Shown here: positions 45,656 through 56,540 of the stretch, piece after piece
Layout: every line of letters begins with the position of its first letter
How positions within the stretch are numbered: the first letter of the stretch is position 1
Assembly (NCBI GenBank): GCA_045803545.1
Contig: JBJMOW010000006.1
Span: 160,001 to 224,000, forward strand
DNA: 64,000 nucleotides
Direction: 5' to 3'
Source: Gemmatimonadaceae bacterium
GTDB taxonomy: Bacteria; Gemmatimonadota; Gemmatimonadetes; Gemmatimonadales; Gemmatimonadaceae
Notes under the pieces: model-generated
Told to the model about the DNA's origin: nothing
Databases searched by the model: none
The model's input: only the letters and a program-made list of their open reading frames with translations
Position numbers and translations under genes: made by a program

Positions 45656-46111
45656 TCAAGGCTTCGAACGGCGTGGCCGCTGCTTGGCAGAGATTGACTT
45701 GATCACTGTTTGCTGCTTACCTGGCTTTCCCGTGAAGCTTGGCCGTGCGCCGAGAATCGCCTGGTCGATCAGATCCCGTACATCCCGATCTTCGAGGTGG
45801 CGTGGAGATGACAGGTGGATGTTGCGCACGATGCTGCCACTCCCATTCAGCATCTTCTTCGGGTCGCGGAGTTTCGCTCCCTTGAGAAAACAGAGTGTGA
45901 CCCAACGCGGCATGATCGCGAGTGACAAAACCGCTTCCGAAGGTCGCTCACTCGGCCCAAATCCGAATACCAACGCGTTGTAATTATCGTAGACGAACTC
46001 GATCCCGCCCGGGATCATCTTGCGCAGCCTGGTCCGCGAGGCGCGCGCATCCGCTGCGATTTTGCCATCGTACTTGGCGAGGAACGACGCGATTTGTCTC
46101 GCCGCGGTCAT
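45656..46111 (-). CDS. DUF1801/YdhG-like protein
   Basis: VYDNYNALV, VTLCFLKGAKLRDP and LNGSG motifs. Confidence 0.75.
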   Translation of the reverse strand: MTAARQIASFLAKYDGKIAADARASRTRLRKMIPGGIEFVYDNYNALVFGFGPSERPSEAVLSLAIMPRWVTLCFLKGAKLRDPKKMLNGSGSIVRNIHLSSPRHLEDRDVRDLIDQAILGARPSFTGKPGKQQTVIKSISAKQRPRRSKP

Positions 46112-46127
46112 CTTTGATCGAGACCGG

Positions 46128-47105
46128 TCAGATTTCCCAGTTGGAAAGCACGATTCCGCCGTTCGCCGGCTTCGCTTCCGAGTAGTCGTGAATCGACATC
46201 CGCAGGTCAGTCCACCTCACTCGCGCGCCGCGCGCAATCAGCCGACGATAGACGCTGCTGTACTGGCCCTGCACGCGGATCGCTACCCGCTTCGCGCCGC
46301 GCACCCGCGCGTGCGCGCACAATTGCGTCACGAGATGATCGAAGTCCGCTTCCGTCTTCGCGACCATCTTGAGCACACGCATCTCCTCGGTCGCGCGCCC
46401 TTCGACCAGCGGAACCGAGTGACACACCGCGAACGCCAGCACTTCGGATCCCTTGCGCACGAATAGGGTGTCCCCGAGCTCGTGCTGCTCGGTGAGCACG
46501 ATCTCTCTGGTATAGTCGTAACCAGGTGACATCTGCTCCAGCATCGCCCGGCATTGGCGCAGCGCCAGCTCGCGCTCATGCGGATTGAGCGAAGAAATCG
46601 TCGTTGCCTGAATTCCCGCCCTCGCCGCCTCGAGGGTCACCGTCACCGTGAGGTGACCGGGCACGAATCCAAGCGCCGAGTAAAATCCGACGTTGTCCAT
46701 CGTTCTCGGCATCGTCTCGAGTCCAATCACCTTGGCGCCGCGCTTTTTCAGCCACTCTACGCCCGTCGAGACAATCACCTTGCCGATTCCCTGGCCTTGG
46801 TAGTCAGGATGCACGGCGAGGGGGCCCATCCACCCTTCGAGTCCGGAGCGATGTACCATGTTGAACGCGGCGATCCCGTCGCGCGCGTTGCGCCAGATCA
46901 TTGCGCCCTCTTCGGCGTCTGCAATCGCGAATTTCCAGACGGCTGGATTGAGGTGTGGAACGCGTACTCCCACCATGCCGTCCTTCCGATAGCGCTCGGT
47001 GAACGCCTCGCTGAACACCGCGTTGAGCGATGCGATCTCACGAATGCTCACACGCTCCGGCGCCTCGGCGACCCACGCGTGTCTCCAGTTGCGCGCGAAC
47101 GCCAT
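46128..47105 (-). CDS. Two-domain GNAT acetyltransferase
   Basis: GPLAVHPDYQGQGIG and NVGFYSALGF motifs; TAATG-coupled to rad50. Confidence 0.88.
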   Translation of the reverse strand: MAFARNWRHAWVAEAPERVSIREIASLNAVFSEAFTERYRKDGMVGVRVPHLNPAVWKFAIADAEEGAMIWRNARDGIAAFNMVHRSGLEGWMGPLAVHPDYQGQGIGKVIVSTGVEWLKKRGAKVIGLETMPRTMDNVGFYSALGFVPGHLTVTVTLEAARAGIQATTISSLNPHERELALRQCRAMLEQMSPGYDYTREIVLTEQHELGDTLFVRKGSEVLAFAVCHSVPLVEGRATEEMRVLKMVAKTEADFDHLVTQLCAHARVRGAKRVAIRVQGQYSSVYRRLIARGARVRWTDLRMSIHDYSEAKPANGGIVLSNWEI

Positions 47106-49615
47106 TACGCCCCCGCTCCAGCCGGGTACTCGGCGGACTCGTCGGAGCCGCGCTCGCGCCGGACAGTCTCGCCGATGCCAAGCGACGGCTGATCGTCCTC
47201 GAACGCATCCTCGTCGCCGACCCCTCCACCCACGACTGAGCTCCCAGTCTCAGGGTCGTAACGCACTGTAATCACACGGTCCATTCCTTCGCGCACCGGC
47301 TCAATGTGTGTGATGAGAATGACCTGTTCGAAGCGATCGTGCAATCCACGCAGCAGCTCGACGACGTTGAAGCGCCTCGCCTCGTCGAGCGAGCCGAACA
47401 CTTCATCCAGAATCAGCAGCGAGAAGCTCTGCCCCGCGCGCTCGGCGATCATCTGCGAAATCGCCAGTCGAAGTACGAGATTGGCGAGGTCCTCCTCACC
47501 GCCCGACAGGACTGGCTTCGGAATTCCGTCCTCGAGGATGACGATGTTGTACTGATCGTCGAGCTCGAGCTCGGTGTAGCGCGCGTCGGTCAGCTCGCTC
47601 AGAAATGCGCTGGCAAGCTCCGACAATTCGGGCCGCAACTGATAGTTGAGGTCGGTGCGGAGATCCGAGAATGCGCGATCGAGCTCATCGTGCAGTCTTC
47701 GATCAGCAACGAGCAGGTCGAGCTCGGCTGCGCGCTTCTTGAATTCCTCTGCGCGTTCCTGCGCGCCTGCCAGAGCCGCCACCGTGCTGACGACCTGCTC
47801 ATGCGCGCGCGCAGCCGCAACCTTCGACTCCTGCAGCTCCGTCCGCAGCCGATCGTATTCGGTCTTCACGTGAGTGAATTCTTTCTCAGTGAAGGCGATT
47901 TGAGCGCGACGAGTGCGCAACGTGCCCAGCATCGACTGCACCCGCATGACTTCCTGCGCGATGTTGGACTGTTCGAGTTTCAGCTGCGGCTCTCTCTCGA
48001 GCATCGCCTGGAACCGCGTGACTTCGGCTTCCATCGGCGTCAGTCGATCGACCTCGGCCAGAACGTCGGCGTGTCGCGCCGCATCGTAACCGGCGGGGAT
48101 CTTGGAGATGTCGCGCTCCATCTGCAGCTGGCGCTGCCGCTTCGCCGCGATGTCGCGGACGATGGTGCCAAGCTCCTGAACCGCGAGCTGCACCTTCGCC
48201 AGTTTCCGCTCGAGATTGCCGACGTCCTGGGTCAGGCCGCGACGCCTCTCGTCGAGCTGGTGCACGTCCTCCGGCATCTGCTCGAGCTGCTCCACGCGCG
48301 CCTTATAATAATTTCCGTCGACGTGGACGTTCTCGATCATCTCGTCGAGGTGCTCGACGACGGTGTGCAGGCTGCCGCCCAGCGGCCGGGCGCAAGTCGG
48401 GCATTCGCCATTCTCGCCGACTGCGACCAGGCGATCGCGCTGTTGTTTTAGCTCGACGTACTGCTGTCGCAGCGACTCACGCTTGGTTTGCGCTTCCTGC
48501 CGGTCGCGCACCCACTCCGTGCGGCGCGCCTCGAGGACTCCCTGCGCGTCCTCGAGCTCTACCCGCTTCTTCTCGAGCTCGAGAGTCGCCTCCTCTTCGA
48601 GCGCGGGGGCGCGCTCGATGCGTGAATGGCGATCCTCGAGGCGAGCGATCTCCTCGCGTAACGCAGCTTCGCCTTCGAGCAGGGTCTTGCGACGCCCTTC
48701 TTCACGGTAAAGCGCGTTCAGCGCCTGCAGCTCGACGTTGAGTGCGTACAGCGGCTCGACCGCCACGGCCAGGGTGTCCACTTTGGTGCGCGCGGCCTTC
48801 ACTCCTTCGAGCTCGTGTTCGATGCGCTCGGCGTCACGACGCAGCGCCGCTTCCTTTTCCTCGCCGACCGTGATTTGCGTCAGGAGCTGCGCCGACTGTT
48901 CGCGCTGGCGCTGCATCATCTCCCAACGCGGCTCGATCGCCATGAACTCACGCTGCCGAACCGCACTGCGGTGCGCCGCATGCTGCGCGCGAGACTCCGC
49001 TTCTTCCCTGCGCGCTGAGGCCTCGGCCAGATTTCGCAGCACAATCTCGGGATCTGGCATTCCCCGCTGCATCCCTTCGACCGCTGCCTTCAACCGATTC
49101 CGTTTCTCGCGAGTGAGGTCCTGGGCGATGCGCAGCTTCTCGTAACCCAGCACGCGCGACAGAAATTGCCCGCGACCGGCTGGCTTCATCGCCGCCATCA
49201 CGTTCAGCTCTTTCTGCCCGGTGAAGTAGGTGTGATAGAACTCTGACAGCGACATGCCCAATCGCCGCTGCAGGAGGTCGTTAGTAGCGGTGATCGAATT
49301 CGCGATTGGCGACCCGGCCCCGTCGAGATACACCTCGGCGCTGGTGAGGCTGCGGACTATGCGATAGCGATGCGACCCCAGCTCGAACTCGAGCTCCACT
49401 TCCACAGGCGCGCGCGCACCGGCGCCGAGAAAGCGGATCGAGTCGCGATTGCCACGGATGGCGGCGTTTCCGTAGAGAGCCCACGCAATTGCTTCCAGAA
49501 TCGTGGTCTTGCCGGCACCATTTGGTCCGATGATGCCGGTGAGACCGCTCTCGAAGGCGATCCTTGTCCGCGCGTGCTGACGAAAGTTGGTAAGACTGAG
49601 TTTGTTCAGCCTCAC
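47105..49615 (-). CDS. sbcC: Rad50/SbcC SMC-family ATPase
   Basis: Walker A GPNGAGKT, Q-loop, coiled coil with CPTC zinc hook, LSGGE signature, LILDE Walker B and ITH. Confidence 0.95.
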   Translation of the reverse strand: MRLNKLSLTNFRQHARTRIAFESGLTGIIGPNGAGKTTILEAIAWALYGNAAIRGNRDSIRFLGAGARAPVEVELEFELGSHRYRIVRSLTSAEVYLDGAGSPIANSITATNDLLQRRLGMSLSEFYHTYFTGQKELNVMAAMKPAGRGQFLSRVLGYEKLRIAQDLTREKRNRLKAAVEGMQRGMPDPEIVLRNLAEASARREEAESRAQHAAHRSAVRQREFMAIEPRWEMMQRQREQSAQLLTQITVGEEKEAALRRDAERIEHELEGVKAARTKVDTLAVAVEPLYALNVELQALNALYREEGRRKTLLEGEAALREEIARLEDRHSRIERAPALEEEATLELEKKRVELEDAQGVLEARRTEWVRDRQEAQTKRESLRQQYVELKQQRDRLVAVGENGECPTCARPLGGSLHTVVEHLDEMIENVHVDGNYYKARVEQLEQMPEDVHQLDERRRGLTQDVGNLERKLAKVQLAVQELGTIVRDIAAKRQRQLQMERDISKIPAGYDAARHADVLAEVDRLTPMEAEVTRFQAMLEREPQLKLEQSNIAQEVMRVQSMLGTLRTRRAQIAFTEKEFTHVKTEYDRLRTELQESKVAAARAHEQVVSTVAALAGAQERAEEFKKRAAELDLLVADRRLHDELDRAFSDLRTDLNYQLRPELSELASAFLSELTDARYTELELDDQYNIVILEDGIPKPVLSGGEEDLANLVLRLAISQMIAERAGQSFSLLILDEVFGSLDEARRFNVVELLRGLHDRFEQVILITHIEPVREGMDRVITVRYDPETGSSVVGGGVGDEDAFEDDQPSLGIGETVRRERGSDESAEYPAGAGA

Positions 49616-50802
49616 GCCGTTGCTTCCTCGACGGCCGGTCCTGCTACCAGGTCCGCCTCGCGGAGGTAGTGCAGCCCGAGCTCGACGAGCGCTTCGCGAT
49701 CGATGTTCTCGGTGATCGGACGTGCACGGAGTTTGTCGCGCACGGTATCGGCGAGTGAAGCGCGACGTCCGGGACCGACGTTCTGCCGATCGGGACGCAC
49801 GATTTCCGGACGACGAGTGTCGAGATGAAAGTGGAGGGCATTACGCTTGTATTCGCGCAGGGCCCGATGATCCAGCTCTCGAAGGATGTGACGCGGTACG
49901 TCGCTTACGACCAGACGGACGATCTTGTCTTTGTAACCGCCTTCGCAGCCATCTAAAGCTTCGCGAATTGCCTCGTCGAGCGACGCGGGCGAAAGTCCGG
50001 CCCCAGATATCGGCATCAGATCGACCCAGCGGCGTGCCGGCAAAATCGGATGGAATTTGTGAACACGGTTCGCGAGGTCGTGCTCGATTATTCCCTTTCC
50101 CTCCAGGCGATTCTCGCGCTCCTCGGCAAGCTCGCCCCACGGATTGGTGCTCGTGTAGTCGATCGAGCCCGGGTAAAAAGCGTTGTCGGCGACTGGGCGA
50201 TAGACGTGATAATGACCGAGGGCGACATAGTCCCAGCGATGCGGACCGAGAGTCTCGATGCTGATTTCCATCGGCGCCCGATCGAGCTCGCGTCCGTACT
50301 TGGGTAGCACGCCTTCTATCTCACCATGCAGCAGCAGGATGTTGTATTTCGCCGATGGATCGGGTTCGAGTCGGGGACTTCCCTGTCCCATGTCGGGGAC
50401 CGCCAATATTGCCAGATCGTGCTCGGCAACGCGTACCCACTTTGGCTCGCCCTCAACCACAGTTATGCCGAGCTGGCGAAAAAGACCGAGGATGCAGCCA
50501 GTTTCGCTGGTGCGAGGAGTGTCGTGATTGCCGGCGACGATCACGATTTCGCTAAGCGGCAGCGCGCGCTTTAGGCGCTCGAACTGCATAAACGCGGTGA
50601 GAATCGCGGGATTGGTCGGCCGCACTGTGTGAAAAACGTCGCCCGCCACCAACACCAGCTCCGGGCTCAGCTCGATTACTCGATCGATGACCGCCCGAAA
50701 TGACTGCGCGACATCGACCTCGCGCTGATTGATACCGATGGAGGCCTGTCGCTGATACTGTCTGAAACCGAGATGTATGTCTGCGAGATGTACGAGTCTC
50801 AT
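49612..50802 (-). CDS. sbcD: Mre11/SbcD metallophosphoesterase nuclease
   Basis: DIHLG, AGDVF, GNHD, LLHG and LGHYH motifs; start ATG 50802 (MRLVHLAD). Confidence 0.94.
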   Translation of the reverse strand: MRLVHLADIHLGFRQYQRQASIGINQREVDVAQSFRAVIDRVIELSPELVLVAGDVFHTVRPTNPAILTAFMQFERLKRALPLSEIVIVAGNHDTPRTSETGCILGLFRQLGITVVEGEPKWVRVAEHDLAILAVPDMGQGSPRLEPDPSAKYNILLLHGEIEGVLPKYGRELDRAPMEISIETLGPHRWDYVALGHYHVYRPVADNAFYPGSIDYTSTNPWGELAEERENRLEGKGIIEHDLANRVHKFHPILPARRWVDLMPISGAGLSPASLDEAIREALDGCEGGYKDKIVRLVVSDVPRHILRELDHRALREYKRNALHFHLDTRRPEIVRPDRQNVGPGRRASLADTVRDKLRARPITENIDREALVELGLHYLREADLVAGPAVEEATA

Positions 50803-51746
50803 CGTGCGCGCATTGCCCTTATCCACTGCGTGATCTTTGTCCGCACCTGCATCGGCGCGATCTGCGCGTCTCCTTTGCGAGCGGGAGTTTGCGCGATCGT
50901 CGAACGTACGATGATGCTGCTCCTTGAATCGGTTATCCAGCCGAGTCTTCGATCGATCTGAATCGTGCCGGCCAGTGTGCCTGAGGTCATGTAGCCCCTT
51001 CCATTCGGTTGAGCTTGACCACTTGCAGCATTCGCGCGGGACATGGTTCCGTGCATGGAAATGTAGGCGATGTCGCCGTTTCTCCCCAGAGAATCCAGAC
51101 GAAAAGTGGCCTTGACTTCTCCGACAGTTCCGGGATCGCCGCTCAACGGGATTTGCATCTCTCGTGTCCATTTTTCGCCGACGGCCACGGCCTGGCGTGC
51201 AAGCATCGCCGGCATCTCGCCGAAGATGTGCCTGAGCTCACTGTTGGCATCGGCATCGTCGACGATTTCCATTGCGCCGTCGGTCGAGACGCGCAGCCAG
51301 ACCGGACGCGCTTGCATTGAGCGGCGGCGCAGATCCTCCAGGGATGCCGGTGACGCTGGCGTCATCTTCACCGAATCCGTGATCGCCTGCATCAGCGTCC
51401 CGCTCGACGTGAGCTGGCTGGGAACTGCACGGGTGAACACCTCGATCGACGTAGTCATCGTCGTCGTCGAATCGGAACCGCGGCTCCTGTTGGTTCCCGT
51501 CATCTCGACGGTTTGAGAGAGATGCATTCTCAAGGTGTCGCCGATGTGCGGGCGAATCTGGAGGAGTACTGATTGGCCGAGTGCGATGGGGGCGCTCAGG
51601 ACGAGCGCAAGCAACAAAGTGGGAAGCGGGAAGCGGGAAGCGGGAAGCGGAATCCGAGCTGGACCAACCTGATTACTGTAAGGCTTGACGGTCGCGCTTC
51701 CCGCCTCCCGCCTCCCGCCTCCCGCCTTAGAACCCGTACGGATCAT
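50799..51746 (-). CDS. Putative exported beta-rich protein whose signal peptide carries a repeat insertion
   Basis: Hydrophobic core LLLALVLSAPIALG; ATG overlaps the herA 3' end and the stop overlaps the mre11 start (ATGA). Confidence 0.7.
   Translation of the reverse strand: MIRTGSKAGGGRREAGSATVKPYSNQVGPARIPLPASRFPLPTLLLALVLSAPIALGQSVLLQIRPHIGDTLRMHLSQTVEMTGTNRSRGSDSTTTMTTSIEVFTRAVPSQLTSSGTLMQAITDSVKMTPASPASLEDLRRRSMQARPVWLRVSTDGAMEIVDDADANSELRHIFGEMPAMLARQAVAVGEKWTREMQIPLSGDPGTVGEVKATFRLDSLGRNGDIAYISMHGTMSRANAASGQAQPNGRGYMTSGTLAGTIQIDRRLGWITDSRSSIIVRSTIAQTPARKGDAQIAPMQVRTKITQWIRAMRAR
51621..51726. repeat. Palindromic element made of inverted heptamer arrays
   Basis: (GGGAAGC)x4 at 51621-51648 and a GCTTCCC/(GCCTCCC)n array at ~51696-51726, which are near reverse complements. 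Confidence 0.85.
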
Positions 51747-53676
51747 CGTCGGGCGCCGATTTGATGCTCGCTGCCATCGGTCGCACCGGAGATTGAGCGG
51801 ATACGATCCTCTTGAATTGCGATGCGAAGTACGCTTTCGCGTTCTCCGGCCGCGCGATCAGTGTCGCGTTGCGTGCTTTGATCACTTCGTCATCGGTATA
51901 TAGCGCGGTGATCTCCTGCACCCAGGGCAGGGTGATCGATGGATCCAGCGGCCGCAGCGAACGGAGCACCGCCACATCGACCGAGACATCGGCTGCCTGC
52001 GGATATTTCTCGGCACCTTCGCGTCCCTGCATCACCGCCGGTCTCGGGAACCGGACGAAGATTGGCTGAGTGAAATGTGGATGTCGAATCATCAACTGCC
52101 CCTTCTCCAGCGTGGCCAGCTTGGTCTTCGTCGCGGGACTCAGCACGGCGTAACCGGGCGTCGAGAGCTCGTCGGCGTCCATCCGGCCGAACAATGCAGT
52201 TCCCGAATTGCCAACGACGCGCCGATGCACCTGAGACCGGAACTGCTGCGCGCTGAACAGCACGAGACCGAGATAGCGGCCACGTTCTGCGATGTCGAGC
52301 AGCATCTTCCTGACGTAGGTGTCGGGACCATCGCCCGGCGCGTACTTGTTGAGCTCATCGACGAAGACGACGAGATGTTTGACGCCGAGGTCCCTGCGCT
52401 CGAGGTGCTCACGAAGCTTGGAGACGATGCGAGCGAAGATGAGATCCTGCGCATCCTCTTCCAGGTTGGCGACATCGACTACGTACACCGCGCGATCTGC
52501 AAAGCTCCCGAACGGGAGATCACTTACAGCTCCAGTGTCAGTAACCAGTCCGGCGCAGCGTGTCGAGATGTTGGAAAGACGATTCCGGACTTTTCGAATG
52601 GTTGCGACGTGATGCGTACGCCAGCTCTCGCCGTCTTTTTTCTCCATTCCCTGGAGAAGATCGCGGAACCAGCCGTCGAGGTCGGCAAATGACTGCACGC
52701 GGTGCTTTTTGCTCAGCACGCCATCGGGAATCATCTCCCTGTCGACGACGTTCTCCTTGATGAAATCGATCAGCGCGTCTGCCTTGGCGTCGATGTCATC
52801 CTTGTTGAGCAGTACTTCGGCGAACTGTAGCACTTCGCGGAGGCCCCACGTCAGCGGCTTGACGTTGTCCAGCAGCGCTTCGTTGTTGCGGAAGGTGTTC
52901 AGCGAGATGCCCTTCGCAGTATAGGGAGCGAAGTACTGAACCTGAGAAAAAGGCTTCGGATCGACGCCCATTTTTTCGTAAAGCTTCTCGTCGGTGTCTT
53001 CGACTCTGCCGGGCTTGTCGAGGTAGCACAGGTCGGGGCCTTTGACGTTGAATGCAACGGCGGCAATCGATCCCTTTTCGTGCGGGAAGTGAGTGAACAT
53101 TGAAGAGAGCAGCCACTCCACCGCGCTCGTTTTGGTGGCGAGCCCGGACATGCCGGTGATGTTTAGATGCGCTGCCTCGGGGCCGAGCAGAAAATCCGCG
53201 TCGAGATAGATCACCGCATCGGTGCCTCCCGCGCGATACACGCCCACCGGAATTCCAGTGTTCGCGCCTTCGCGCAGATAGCCGTCCATGCGCAGCGCGA
53301 CCTGCACGTCCTGCTCTTCCGCGAGAAAGACTTCGCCCATCGGCACCGGCTGCAGCGGCTCCTCCGGGATCTGGCGCAAGACCGCCGCGGTGTAGAGCCG
53401 GATTTCGGCGCGTTCAGTCGCGGCGAAGCTCGCCGCCGACGGTGATCCGTCATGGCCGAGGACATCGTGCATCGGCGACTGCAGATCGGTGTAGCTGAAC
53501 CCCTCGACCACGATTCCGTAGATGTGTGGGATCTGGGCAGCGATCGGTTGCGCGCCATCGACGCGCACGATAGTACCAATGCCGACCGGCGAATCGATTG
53601 CCGTCCAGAAATGAAATTCGTGCGGAGTATTCGGCTTCCGCTCCGTTGCTACGACCCGGCCTAGTGCTTCACTCAT
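51727..53676 (-). CDS. herA: HerA family DNA translocase/ATPase
   Basis: N-terminal HAS-barrel-like region; variant Walker A GMSGLATKTS; Walker B VVFVDE; ERGRYLG arginine finger; AQQ sensor. Confidence 0.88.
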   Translation of the reverse strand: MSEALGRVVATERKPNTPHEFHFWTAIDSPVGIGTIVRVDGAQPIAAQIPHIYGIVVEGFSYTDLQSPMHDVLGHDGSPSAASFAATERAEIRLYTAAVLRQIPEEPLQPVPMGEVFLAEEQDVQVALRMDGYLREGANTGIPVGVYRAGGTDAVIYLDADFLLGPEAAHLNITGMSGLATKTSAVEWLLSSMFTHFPHEKGSIAAVAFNVKGPDLCYLDKPGRVEDTDEKLYEKMGVDPKPFSQVQYFAPYTAKGISLNTFRNNEALLDNVKPLTWGLREVLQFAEVLLNKDDIDAKADALIDFIKENVVDREMIPDGVLSKKHRVQSFADLDGWFRDLLQGMEKKDGESWRTHHVATIRKVRNRLSNISTRCAGLVTDTGAVSDLPFGSFADRAVYVVDVANLEEDAQDLIFARIVSKLREHLERRDLGVKHLVVFVDELNKYAPGDGPDTYVRKMLLDIAERGRYLGLVLFSAQQFRSQVHRRVVGNSGTALFGRMDADELSTPGYAVLSPATKTKLATLEKGQLMIRHPHFTQPIFVRFPRPAVMQGREGAEKYPQAADVSVDVAVLRSLRPLDPSITLPWVQEITALYTDDEVIKARNATLIARPENAKAYFASQFKRIVSAQSPVRPMAASIKSAPDDDPYGF

Positions 53677-54704
53677 GAAATTGCCCGCAGAAATTCTTCG
53701 CAGTCTCGCACACCGTATGACATCTTGTCCCATCGGCCGTCCGGAAGAGCGAGTGGAGTCTTCTCGGCGAGAATCCAGCGAGAGATCTCATCTGCGCGAT
53801 CTGCTGGATTGGCGCACTCTGACATCTCGACGCGCACCAGTCCCCACAACGGATCGTGTCCATCTGCGCTCCGCTGCCTGAGATACCAACTGAACACCGA
53901 GTTGCGCCTTCGCGGAGAGACCTGGAATACGGAGGAGCGCTCGTTGACGGCGAGACTCAGAACGACTTTGAGCGCTTCGTCCTCCACATAGAGCGTTCGA
54001 TGGCTCTTGATCACGCCGACAGCGCAGCCCGATGACGCAACGACAGCACTGCGATTGATGCCACCGTCGACAAATAGCGGTGCTTCGTCTCGCACGCACC
54101 ATGCTTCAGCGATCTGATCTTCCAGCAGCTCTCGCTGTTGATCGACGGCGCGGATTGCGCGATCGAGCAGCACCTGCGGGTGTGGACTCGGGTAGTCTCC
54201 GTTCGCGTCAGCCTTCGACGTATCGACAACCGTGAGCCCGCTTTCGCCCAGGGGTAGTTCGGCCAGTGGCGGCAAATATTTGAGAGGCAGATAGAGCTTG
54301 AACTCGACTCTCGGCGGTTGATGCCCCCACGTGGTGAGCCGGCGATTTACGCGCACCCGCACAACTGCCGACGTGATTCCCAGCACCAGCGGCACACCTT
54401 CGTGACGCGCGATCAGGCGAACCTTTTGCGCGCCGTCGAGGAACGCACCGAACCCGGACTGCACGTCGCGGGATACGCCGGGAACCCTCCTCGCTCGCAT
54501 CAGACTGCCTTCGACGATCTGCGCCGACCGCAGCTGAGGCTGATCGAGAGACCCGGGCGAATCGACCTCGACGCTGGTGCTGATCTCAGTGATACCGGGC
54601 AGTCGCTGCATCAGCAGCTTGAGCGCGGCCCGGCTGGCGTGGTCCGGACCGGAATTGATCAACTGCAACCGCCTACTCCAGCCCGATGTCCCACGCCTGC
54701 TCAA
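53673..54704 (-). CDS. nurA: NurA-like nuclease (RNase H fold); start uncertain
   Basis: AFLDG, LFVDG, VGVIKSH, SWYLR and GLVRVE motifs; ATGA-coupled to herA. Confidence 0.75.
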   Translation of the reverse strand: MSRRGTSGWSRRLQLINSGPDHASRAALKLLMQRLPGITEISTSVEVDSPGSLDQPQLRSAQIVEGSLMRARRVPGVSRDVQSGFGAFLDGAQKVRLIARHEGVPLVLGITSAVVRVRVNRRLTTWGHQPPRVEFKLYLPLKYLPPLAELPLGESGLTVVDTSKADANGDYPSPHPQVLLDRAIRAVDQQRELLEDQIAEAWCVRDEAPLFVDGGINRSAVVASSGCAVGVIKSHRTLYVEDEALKVVLSLAVNERSSVFQVSPRRRNSVFSWYLRQRSADGHDPLWGLVRVEMSECANPADRADEISRWILAEKTPLALPDGRWDKMSYGVRDCEEFLRAIS

Positions 54705-54951
54705 GGTCCTTCTTTGAGTAGGCGCGAAATGCCGTGAGGGTGTGGGTGGACCTGATTCCAGGAACGACGGTGACTTCCTCGGTCACGATGCGCGCAATCG
54801 CCTCGTGCTCGGCGACTTCGAGCATGGCCACAAGGTCCCATTCGCCTGAAACGGAAAAGACCTGGGAAATGCCCTCGATGCCCGCCAACCGTGTCGCGGC
54901 CTGGGCGATTCTTTGGGGCTCTGCTTTGATGAGAACGATCGCAGTAATCAA
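54673..54951 (-). CDS. Stand-alone Lrp/AsnC ligand-binding (RAM) domain protein
   Basis: ITAIVLIKAE...GISQVFSVSGEWDLVA...GIRSTHTLTAF; TTG start with GGAG SD; no HTH. Confidence 0.85.
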   Translation of the reverse strand: MITAIVLIKAEPQRIAQAATRLAGIEGISQVFSVSGEWDLVAMLEVAEHEAIARIVTEEVTVVPGIRSTHTLTAFRAYSKKDLEQAWDIGLE

Positions 54952-55091
54952 GTACGCTCCGGGCCGCCAGCCGTTCGCTGTCGGCTGCCTTTCAGTATCT
55001 TTGGTGAGCGATTTGCCGCGCATCTGGCGGCGGGTGATATAACGATATCGGCGCGGCGGACGCTCCGCCACGTTTTGAAATAGAGGTTGAG

Positions 55092-56540
55092 ATGCCGGAA
55101 TTGGAGGACCTTGGAGAGCGCGCCACGCCGCAGGCGACCCGCGCGCAGAATCTCCTCTACACGCTGCCGTACACCACCGAGTCGATCGCGGAGTTTCTGA
55201 CGCCAGCGCTCGCACGTGTGGATCGCACTGCCGGCGGCACGCAGGTTCTCGTCGTCACGCGCGACGCGGAAACCGCTCTGACGATCTCGGAGACGATTCT
55301 TCGCATCTCGGGTCCAGCGGGGATCGAGGTCGTTCCAGCGACCAGCGCCTCTCGCGCCGCCCGGATCTTCAAGACACGTCCGGTGCTGGCGGTCGCAGGT
55401 CCGGCGACCGAGCTCAGCGCGCTGGTAAAGAGTTCTCTGCTCAAGCTCGACACAGTTCGAACGGTCGTGCTCGCCTGGGCTGACGACATTCTCGGCGAGG
55501 GGCCGGAGGCGATCAGTGCACTCGAAGCACTGCTCGCCGAGCTCGGCGAGGCCGGACGCGTGATTGTGGTGCGCAAAGCCACCCCCGCGATTGAGAATCT
55601 GGTCGAGCGCTACGCCCGCCGGGCGCGGAGAGTGGGTCCCGCCGAAGCGGAGGCGCCAGAGGTGCCCGCTGATTACGAGCTGCCGATCATCCGCTTCGTG
55701 ACGGTTGCCGCCAGTGCCCGGGCGAGCTCGCTGCGTAGGCTGCTCGACGATCTTGATCCGCCATCCGCGATTGTGGTTGCGCGCGATCAGGTCGCGGCCG
55801 ACACTGCGACGCACACGCTCCGAACGCTCGGCTATCATCAGGACGACAAGACTATCAACGTCACCCGCGGAGATTTCGGAAGCGCGACCGCTCACACCGT
55901 GATCTTCTACCAGCCGCCGGTGACGCCGGCGGAGCTGCAGCGCATCGCATCTGCGCGGCCAGTGGAGGTAGTTGCGCTCGCAACCCCGGGCGAAGTGCCG
56001 TGGCTCCGTGAGCTGGCTAGCGGAAGACTGACTCCGCTGAACTTGCACGGACCGGAACGCCGCGCCCGCAACCGCGAGGAAGCGCTGCGTGAAGAGCTGC
56101 GCGCCGTGCTCGCGAACGGCGTTCCGCCACGCGAGGTGTTGTCACTGGAACCGCTTCTTCGAGAGTACGATGCCACCGAGCTTGCGGCGGCGGCGCTGCA
56201 CATGCTCGAGAGGGAGCGGGCTCAACGACGCGCGGCGGAAGCGAACCAGGCGCCGGCTGCGCGACCCAAGCCGCCTGAAGGCGATCGCCCGCGCGAGCGC
56301 GAACGAGACCGCGATCGTGGAGCTCCGCGGGAACGGGACCGCGATCGCGGAGCTCCGAGGGGACGGAGCTTCGACCGAGGTGAGCGCAACGATCGAGGCG
56401 ATCGCGGCCCCCGTGGTCCTTCATTCGACCGCGGCGATCGCGACAGCCGTGGCGGCGATCGTGGTGACCGAGGACGTCCGTTCGACCGCGGACGCCCCAA
56501 CCGCGGCGGTGGTCCGCGACGTGATCGCGATCGCTCGTGA
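55092..56540 (+). CDS. Degenerate DEAD-box (DeaD/CsdA-like) protein with an R/D/G-rich tail
   Basis: Helicase-like order of elements, but motif I reads LPYTTES and motif II reads VLAWAD; low-complexity C-terminus; SD GAGG. Confidence 0.75.
56291..56365 (+). repeat. Intragenic ~30-bp tandem repeat encoding [10 protein letters not shown] units
   Basis: GACCGCGATCG(T/C)GGAGCTCCG is repeated with a 30-nt period. Confidence 0.7.

Follow-up and report, generated by a model that had tools for sequence, protein, structure and literature searches.

NurA and HerA of Deinococcus radiodurans, available as PDB entries 7F6D, 7WRW and 7WRX, are described as resecting a 5′ tail (PMC9960219). In archaea (Sulfolobales and Thermococcales), nurA and herA are clustered with mre11 and rad50 in a herA-mre11-rad50-nurA operon. 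A bacterial cluster of the same four gene types, nurA-herA-sbcD-sbcC, is on record for Oceanithermus profundus (PMC5448004); a passage of a 2026 review speaks of bacterial nurA without such synteny (PMC13748450). Here, we analyze a block of seven genes in a 64,000-nucleotide (nt) stretch of a Gemmatimonadaceae genome (hereafter the window) that carries all four components together with an acetyltransferase of the GNAT family. The four-gene bacterial cluster is already known; what stands out is the scarcity of AddAB in the host's order, Gemmatimonadales, and the constancy with which the GNAT gene follows rad50. Literature searches, at the level of titles and abstract openings, turned up nothing on this operon in Gemmatimonadota or on a GNAT linked to SbcCD. 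Read from position 54951 down to 46128, the seven open reading frames (ORFs) of the block, all on the minus strand, are as follows.

54673..54951, minus strand: lrp, a stand-alone Lrp/AsnC RAM ligand-binding domain of 92 amino acids (aa); PF01037, E 6e-13, is its sole domain
53673..54668, minus strand: nurA, NurA nuclease of the bacterial type; start at TTG 54668 or ATG 54611; profile and fold matches
51727..53676, minus strand: herA, HerA ATPase/translocase of the Deinococcus type, 649 aa; 7F6D match and motifs
50799..51746, minus strand: DUF6263-like exported protein; PF19777, E 8e-9, and DUF6263 clusters in the atlas
49612..50802, minus strand: mre11, Mre11/SbcD nuclease, 396 aa; PF00149, motifs intact
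47105..49615, minus strand: rad50, Rad50/SbcC ATPase, 836 aa; PRK03918, motifs and PDB ranking
46128..47105, minus strand: tandem GNAT acetyltransferase, 325 aa; PF00583, overlapping the rad50 stop

All seven genes are present in the order, and under the names, that the original prediction from the sequence had given them. Spacing at successive junctions is +4, −4, −20, −4, −4 and −1 nt. The predicted overlap of stop and start therefore holds at five of the six; at lrp-nurA it requires TTG 54704 as the nurA start, and homologue alignments begin at ~54611. Pfam names the GNAT, Rad50, Mre11, DUF6263 and Lrp ligand-binding domains and returned no family for NurA or HerA. The GC content of the block (0.60–0.64) is like that of the remainder of the window, and the absence of an anomaly speaks against a recent transfer of the block.

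NurA and HerA were assigned with profiles and structures. As a single query, NurA gave no match. A profile of 53 sequences, eight of its rows from more distant clusters of the gemmatimonad family f7, matched D. radiodurans NurA (7F6D, E 5e-20) and Thermotoga maritima TM1739 (1ZUP, E 2e-15); it matched no archaeal NurA at E ≤ 10. For the predicted NurA model (predicted local distance difference test score, 92), Foldseek ranked 7F6D first (E 3e-11), followed by 1ZUP (E 1e-9), TdpAB (E 6e-6) and then Sulfolobus NurA. The RNase H-like NurA fold expected between 53673 and 54704 was recovered by profile, model and Foldseek alike. Counting residues from 54611, D59, D182, K202 and R293 each reach at least 90% conservation across the 53 sequences, and the catalytic D(G) motifs I and II are in place. 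D59, K202 and R293 align with D53, K201 and R309 of D. radiodurans NurA once its 20-residue tag is allowed for, and each of these three is reported as necessary for activity (PMC9960219). PF09376 did not match NurA, which reflects the reach of that Pfam model, because it also missed 7 of 14 control genomes, including Thermus. Judged by these alignments, NurA is of the bacterial Deinococcus/Thermotoga type, with predicted nuclease activity.

At E ≤ 1, HerA matches a single PDB protein, its D. radiodurans counterpart (7F6D, E 4e-40), aligned in two stretches (residues 2–310 and 379–561); no archaeal HerA structure matched at this threshold. The protein has a HAS barrel and a RecA-like ATPase domain with the GxSGxATKT and DE motifs; Walker A (GxSGxATKTS) and the Walker B DE are invariant across 20 HerA sequences. 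The Walker A noted originally as a variant, GMSGLATKTS, is indeed present but is the normal motif of the family (GISGVATKTS in D. radiodurans HerA). The D. radiodurans complex is the best match in sequence and fold for both proteins. Beyond Walker A and the three NurA residues, that bacterium shares with the present host the lack of RecBCD/AddAB and the presence of RecJ-RecQ. Unlike in D. radiodurans, the pair lies here in one block with mre11-rad50 and GNAT.

The second pair of proteins ranks differently. Mre11 retains by alignment the phosphoesterase residues of all five motifs (D8, H10, D55, N92, H93, H159 and H199). Against the PDB, its profile scored 99 bits with 3AUZ/3AV0, 72 with 1II7, 57 with 3QG5 and 36 with 6S6V; we take these structures to come from Methanocaldococcus, Pyrococcus, Thermotoga and E. 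coli, respectively. In Rad50, the Walker A, Q-loop, CPTC zinc hook, SGGE signature, Walker B and H-loop are all intact, and the zinc hook, as predicted, is present and invariant at C405, P406 and C408 in 48 sequences. Rad50 scored better with the PRK03918 Rad50 model (E 3.5e-54) than with the SbcC model TIGR00618 (E 8e-30), both scores being below the cut-off. Its PDB ranking parallels that of Mre11, archaeal structures first, although these constructs have trimmed coils. Alone among the genes of the block, mre11 and rad50 thus encode proteins that score best with archaeal ones. At E ≤ 1e-30, 716 clusters match, mostly without a name. In the search for Mre11 relatives outside the gemmatimonads, 10 clusters carried no taxon, all matches named by taxon were from Gemmatimonadota, a set of 80 loci was either from Gemmatimonadota or unlabelled, and viral contigs yielded none; we accordingly make no claim of an archaeal origin for mre11-rad50.

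On this sequence evidence, the best description of the block is that of a composite, with a Deinococcus-type NurA-HerA pair and an Mre11-Rad50 pair that scores best on archaeal structures. The earlier label of an archaeal-style module fits only the gene content and the similarity of Mre11/Rad50. It does not fit NurA and HerA, which PDB, profile and fold comparisons place with the bacterial type; unlike in the archaeal operon, moreover, the gene order differs and nurA-herA is dispensable.

RecBCD, AddAB or AdnAB is put at 88% of sequenced bacteria in a published count (PMC6452273). The original prediction contrasted the block with these systems; in the host genome (3.7 Mb, 6 contigs), no RecC and no PF12705 nuclease domain (AddA/AddB/RecB/AdnAB type) was found. 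The repair genes detected encode three UvrD-like helicases, RecJ, two RecQ, RecA, RecO, RecF, two LexA and two Ku. The survey was extended to 150 members of the phylum with a genome completeness of 90% or more, 107 from the order (families f1, f2 and f3) and 43 from outside it, together with 80 further named loci that partly overlap this sample. Any PF12705 match occurs in 34 of the 107 order genomes and in 43/43 outside; at E < 1e-20, a cut picked after the data were seen, an AddAB/RecB-type nuclease is found in 20/107 as opposed to 39/43. Within the window's genus (n = 60), six genomes have any match and one has a full match in a long frame. In most of the order, the end-trimming machine usual in bacteria has been lost, and, set against the general figure of 88%, the 20/107 means that break repair there must start otherwise. 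Family f3 has no herA in its 12 genomes and a strong AddAB-type match in just four. The two ku genes, seen alongside two lexA genes, mean that end-joining is available to the host too. A UvrD-like helicase frame of ~1045 aa outside the window (host contig C5, ~121800) has, by eye, a DEDD exonuclease-like domain past the helicase and is a possible extra end-processing enzyme.

Within the order, 106 genomes carry mre11 and 106 carry GNAT, compared with 97 for herA and 83 for nurA. These counts mark mre11-rad50-GNAT as the fixed core and nurA-herA as the part that can be lost. Of 62 loci, eight lack the latter pair cleanly, herA stands without nurA at 6 loci, and in each of the eight herA-less genomes examined mre11-rad50-GNAT still occupies the same place. 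Each gene of the block is single-copy in the host genome, mre11 and rad50 lie within 150 nt of each other in 51/51 loci, and the locus is constant across the order beside genes for a DEAD-like protein, TK and CoaE. Pairwise protein distances correlate for all genes (Spearman 0.69–0.87, 32 loci), and an unrelated divergent neighbour is equally correlated, which argues for vertical descent and against any special co-evolution of GNAT with Rad50. In one genome (G133; L195:5609-7556, minus strand), rad50 is short and broken across two frames, through decay or assembly error, and GNAT is intact; this genome also has no nurA, herA or AddAB-type match.

Conserved and specific to the order, the GNAT enzyme is encoded at the 3′ end of the operon. 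It was found in 106/107 genomes of the order and, at E ≤ 1e-30, in 0/43 outside it. The distance from mre11 to GNAT equals one rad50 length in 98 of the 105 genomes with both; four have an insert and three carry the genes on separate contigs. GNAT follows rad50 directly in all 55 named loci with enough flank (of the 80), and in 47/49 loci it overlaps the rad50 stop or starts within 30 nt of it. Its place in a resection operon had been predicted; the linkage proved tighter than first supposed, but the partner is mre11-rad50 and not nurA-herA. Structure searches returned a tandem GNAT fold, shared with 3TT2, MAB_4324 (7Q3A), 3DDD, MshD and NMT, which likewise have two GNAT folds per chain. These matches are generic, and because identity to the solved tandem GNATs is only 9–14%, no substrate can be inferred. 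A C-terminal SNWE(I/V) motif is invariant in 47/47 sequences.

Four-gene clusters also occur in Nonomuraea gerenzanensis (L110) and in 7 of 8 f7 loci, as they do in Oceanithermus. Their HerAs are only ~30–34% identical to that of the window in f7 and Nonomuraea, some of these clusters run herA-mre11-rad50-nurA, and f7 SbcC matches span 920–1180 aa compared with ~805 here. No GNAT, Lrp or DUF6263 gene was found in the f7 and Nonomuraea clusters. Family f7 (L074-L081, L202) has a four-gene cluster of a second kind, which comes in two gene orders and together with AddAB; one of its genomes (G107) carries a separate mre11 nearer to the window's type.

We read the block as a vertically inherited housekeeping operon for DNA-end processing that feeds RecFOR/RecA in parallel with RecJ-RecQ, and we put the probability of this reading at roughly 55%. 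Mre11-Rad50 would bind and clean blocked or hairpin ends, the HerA hexamer would pump duplex DNA into the NurA dimer, and NurA would degrade the 5′ strand to leave a 3′ tail for RecFOR-loaded RecA. The pathway would operate alongside RecJ-RecQ and be helpful, not essential, because nurA-herA has been lost repeatedly. Gene identities, intact motifs, distribution and synteny were established directly; co-transcription is inferred, and so, from homologues, are a hand-over between the two pairs and the role in vivo. The original proposal of a complete four-component resection module survives to the extent that all four proteins are there, their catalytic motifs are intact, and the genome yielded no RecC or AddAB-type nuclease; its dedicated extras, Lrp and the exported protein, do not.

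Several observations weigh against this reading. The host assembly is only 93% complete. Within the order, 12 genomes have both nurA and an AddAB-type nuclease, 71 have nurA only, 8 have the nuclease only and 16 have neither. Twelve of the 83 nurA-positive genomes therefore retain AddAB, 16/107 do without both, and the association between the two (Fisher p = 0.07) was computed over kin that are not independent. In f7, 12 of 16 genomes carry both nurA and an AddAB-type nuclease. Strict mutual exclusion with AddAB, which we had also considered, is contradicted by these co-occurrences. R495 and R552 of D. radiodurans HerA, both targets of mutation in the published work (PMC9960219), pair with G and T here in a pairwise alignment in which nearby basic residues may substitute. 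Finally, deletion of nurA-herA in D. radiodurans is reported to have raised tolerance to mitomycin C and ultraviolet light (PMC9960219).

The unequal presence of the genes (106 of the 107 genomes for mre11, 97 for herA and 83 for nurA) would also fit two independent modules on one transcript, with Mre11-Rad50 doing the ordinary SbcCD job, NurA-HerA serving as an accessory pair and RecJ-RecQ carrying out resection. The loss of nurA-herA from 8/62 loci and from all eight herA-less genomes examined, the six loci at which herA persists alone, and the Thermus nurA-herA pair, described as having no DNA-metabolism neighbours (PMC5448004), are all consistent with that division. Clusters of the four genes nevertheless turn up again in other orders and with an SbcC that is different and longer (7/8 f7 loci, Nonomuraea and Oceanithermus), a repeated association that suggests selection for a shared pathway; we regard separate modules as a credible but clearly less probable account than a joint end-processing operon. 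Action on incoming DNA, at phage or plasmid ends, or in DNA transfer was another part of the original prediction. TdpAB does appear among the NurA fold matches (E 6e-6), and distant HerA relatives occur on six plasmid-collection and two phage records, but these mobile-element HerAs are just 26–32% identical. The 2026 review, in a passage on bacteria, has NurA-HerA mainly degrading viral DNA (PMC13748450), and Thermus hepA mutants are described as transjugation-defective (PMC5448004). The known HerA anti-phage systems (Sir2-HerA, DUF4297-HerA and TdpAB) combine an effector with patchy or mobile spread, and neither is seen here: PADLOC gave only generic ATPase matches (HerA at E 5e-5, no effector; none for NurA, Mre11 or GNAT), and herA is present in 97/107 genomes, at a fixed chromosomal locus amid housekeeping genes wherever examined. 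Single-copy, fixed-locus, vertical inheritance disfavours such repurposing, which we consider improbable, although foreign ends may be degraded as a side effect.

The GNAT might instead be a dedicated regulator that switches end processing by acetylating Rad50 or Mre11, by analogy with Eco1 and its substrate, cohesin Smc3. The enzyme sits directly behind rad50 in 55/55 named loci and 98/105 genomes, its gene overlaps the rad50 stop or starts no more than 30 nt from it in 47/49, and it is retained as often as mre11; near-invariant lysines that could be modified are Rad50 K135 and K700 and Mre11 K236. Against this, sister lineages (L071 and L199) have the same type of Mre11-Rad50 without GNAT, and one genome (L195) has a split rad50 yet an intact GNAT. 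Its covariation with Rad50 (0.80) is below that of the DEAD-like neighbour with Rad50 (0.87), its fold matches are generic tandem GNATs, and an aminotransferase gene is likewise a long-term member of the unit. A dedicated switch is accordingly doubtful, and we favour the housekeeping operon with GNAT as a conserved companion of mre11-rad50.

The two remaining genes were followed at 52 loci selected around herA (51 for DUF6263, since one contig ends early). In most relatives, the same-strand block begins further upstream with an aminotransferase (34/52 loci, within the range fetched), joined by a gene for a 170-aa protein (28/52) and at times by an O-methyltransferase (10). Domain searches found RAM only in the 92-aa Lrp protein and no N-terminal helix-turn-helix (HTH), whereas Lrp/AsnC regulators have both. 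The gene was predicted to be conserved with the core four, together with the exported one, and to encode an HTH-less amino-acid sensor that possibly regulates the module. Instead, lrp is confined to one family (23/26 f1 loci, 0/24 f2 loci), is separated from nurA by over 400 nt in 8 of 23 loci, follows the aminotransferase gene in most relatives and is retained where nurA-herA has been lost. A role as regulator of the repair genes is unsupported; amino-acid binding by RAM would suit the aminotransferase better. The DUF6263 gene is present at 31/51 loci. Its product has a signal peptide by eye, and f2 relatives have a lipobox-like N-terminus; a dedicated role was rejected for a protein that is missing from 20/51 loci and would occupy another compartment. 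Both genes appear to be passengers in a longer, mixed unit of transcription, the co-transcription of which is probable from gene arrangement. The 170-aa protein (L086:11611-12117, minus strand; L085:4507-5034, plus strand) has faint DUF2283 similarity (E 0.01); its gene precedes nurA or mre11 where present, and none of the eight loci from the window's genus yielded it.

At the junction of herA and DUF6263 (~51620–51727), the −20 overlap crosses a palindromic heptamer insert: a pair of 7-nt tandem repeats, palindromic and in frame, opens the DUF6263 ORF. In most relatives of the genus the overlap is a plain −11. Arrays of at least three of these heptamers are dispersed across the host genome (6, 11, 20 and 29 for the four motifs tried) and are like a REP-type repeat. 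A 151-aa ORF (45656-46111, minus strand) begins 16 nt past the GNAT stop, belongs to no Pfam or NCBIfam family and, among the loci examined, has a counterpart at that place only in the closest relative. Upstream of the block lies one further feature.

54952..55091, no strand: divergent intergenic region; extended −10-like motif conserved in eight genus loci, by eye

This motif is a likely promoter by its sequence. A sigma-70 consensus scan of the region gave 0 sites, and inspection by eye only showed no SOS box common to recA, both lexA genes and the operon. Of the sampled sequence words, only 5–7% were present in five soil metatranscriptomes, a weak match. The divergent gene beyond (55092-56540, plus strand) encodes a 482-aa protein with a weak CshA DEAD-box match (E 4e-14), an Arg/Gly/Asp-rich tail and no Pfam family; it has the appearance of a degenerate RNA helicase and stays beside the operon throughout the order.

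The natural losses of nurA-herA make the role of the bacterial pair testable in hosts with a cognate Mre11-Rad50, and cultured Gemmatimonas strains exist. The order-wide scarcity of AddAB is worth testing, as is the near-invariant link of rad50 to an order-specific, near-universal enzyme. In the boldest version, which we hold to be a long shot, the order swapped AddAB for the composite machine, with GNAT acetylating the Mre11-Rad50 head as its control; if true, it would provide a bacterial parallel to acetyl control over an SMC-family ATPase.

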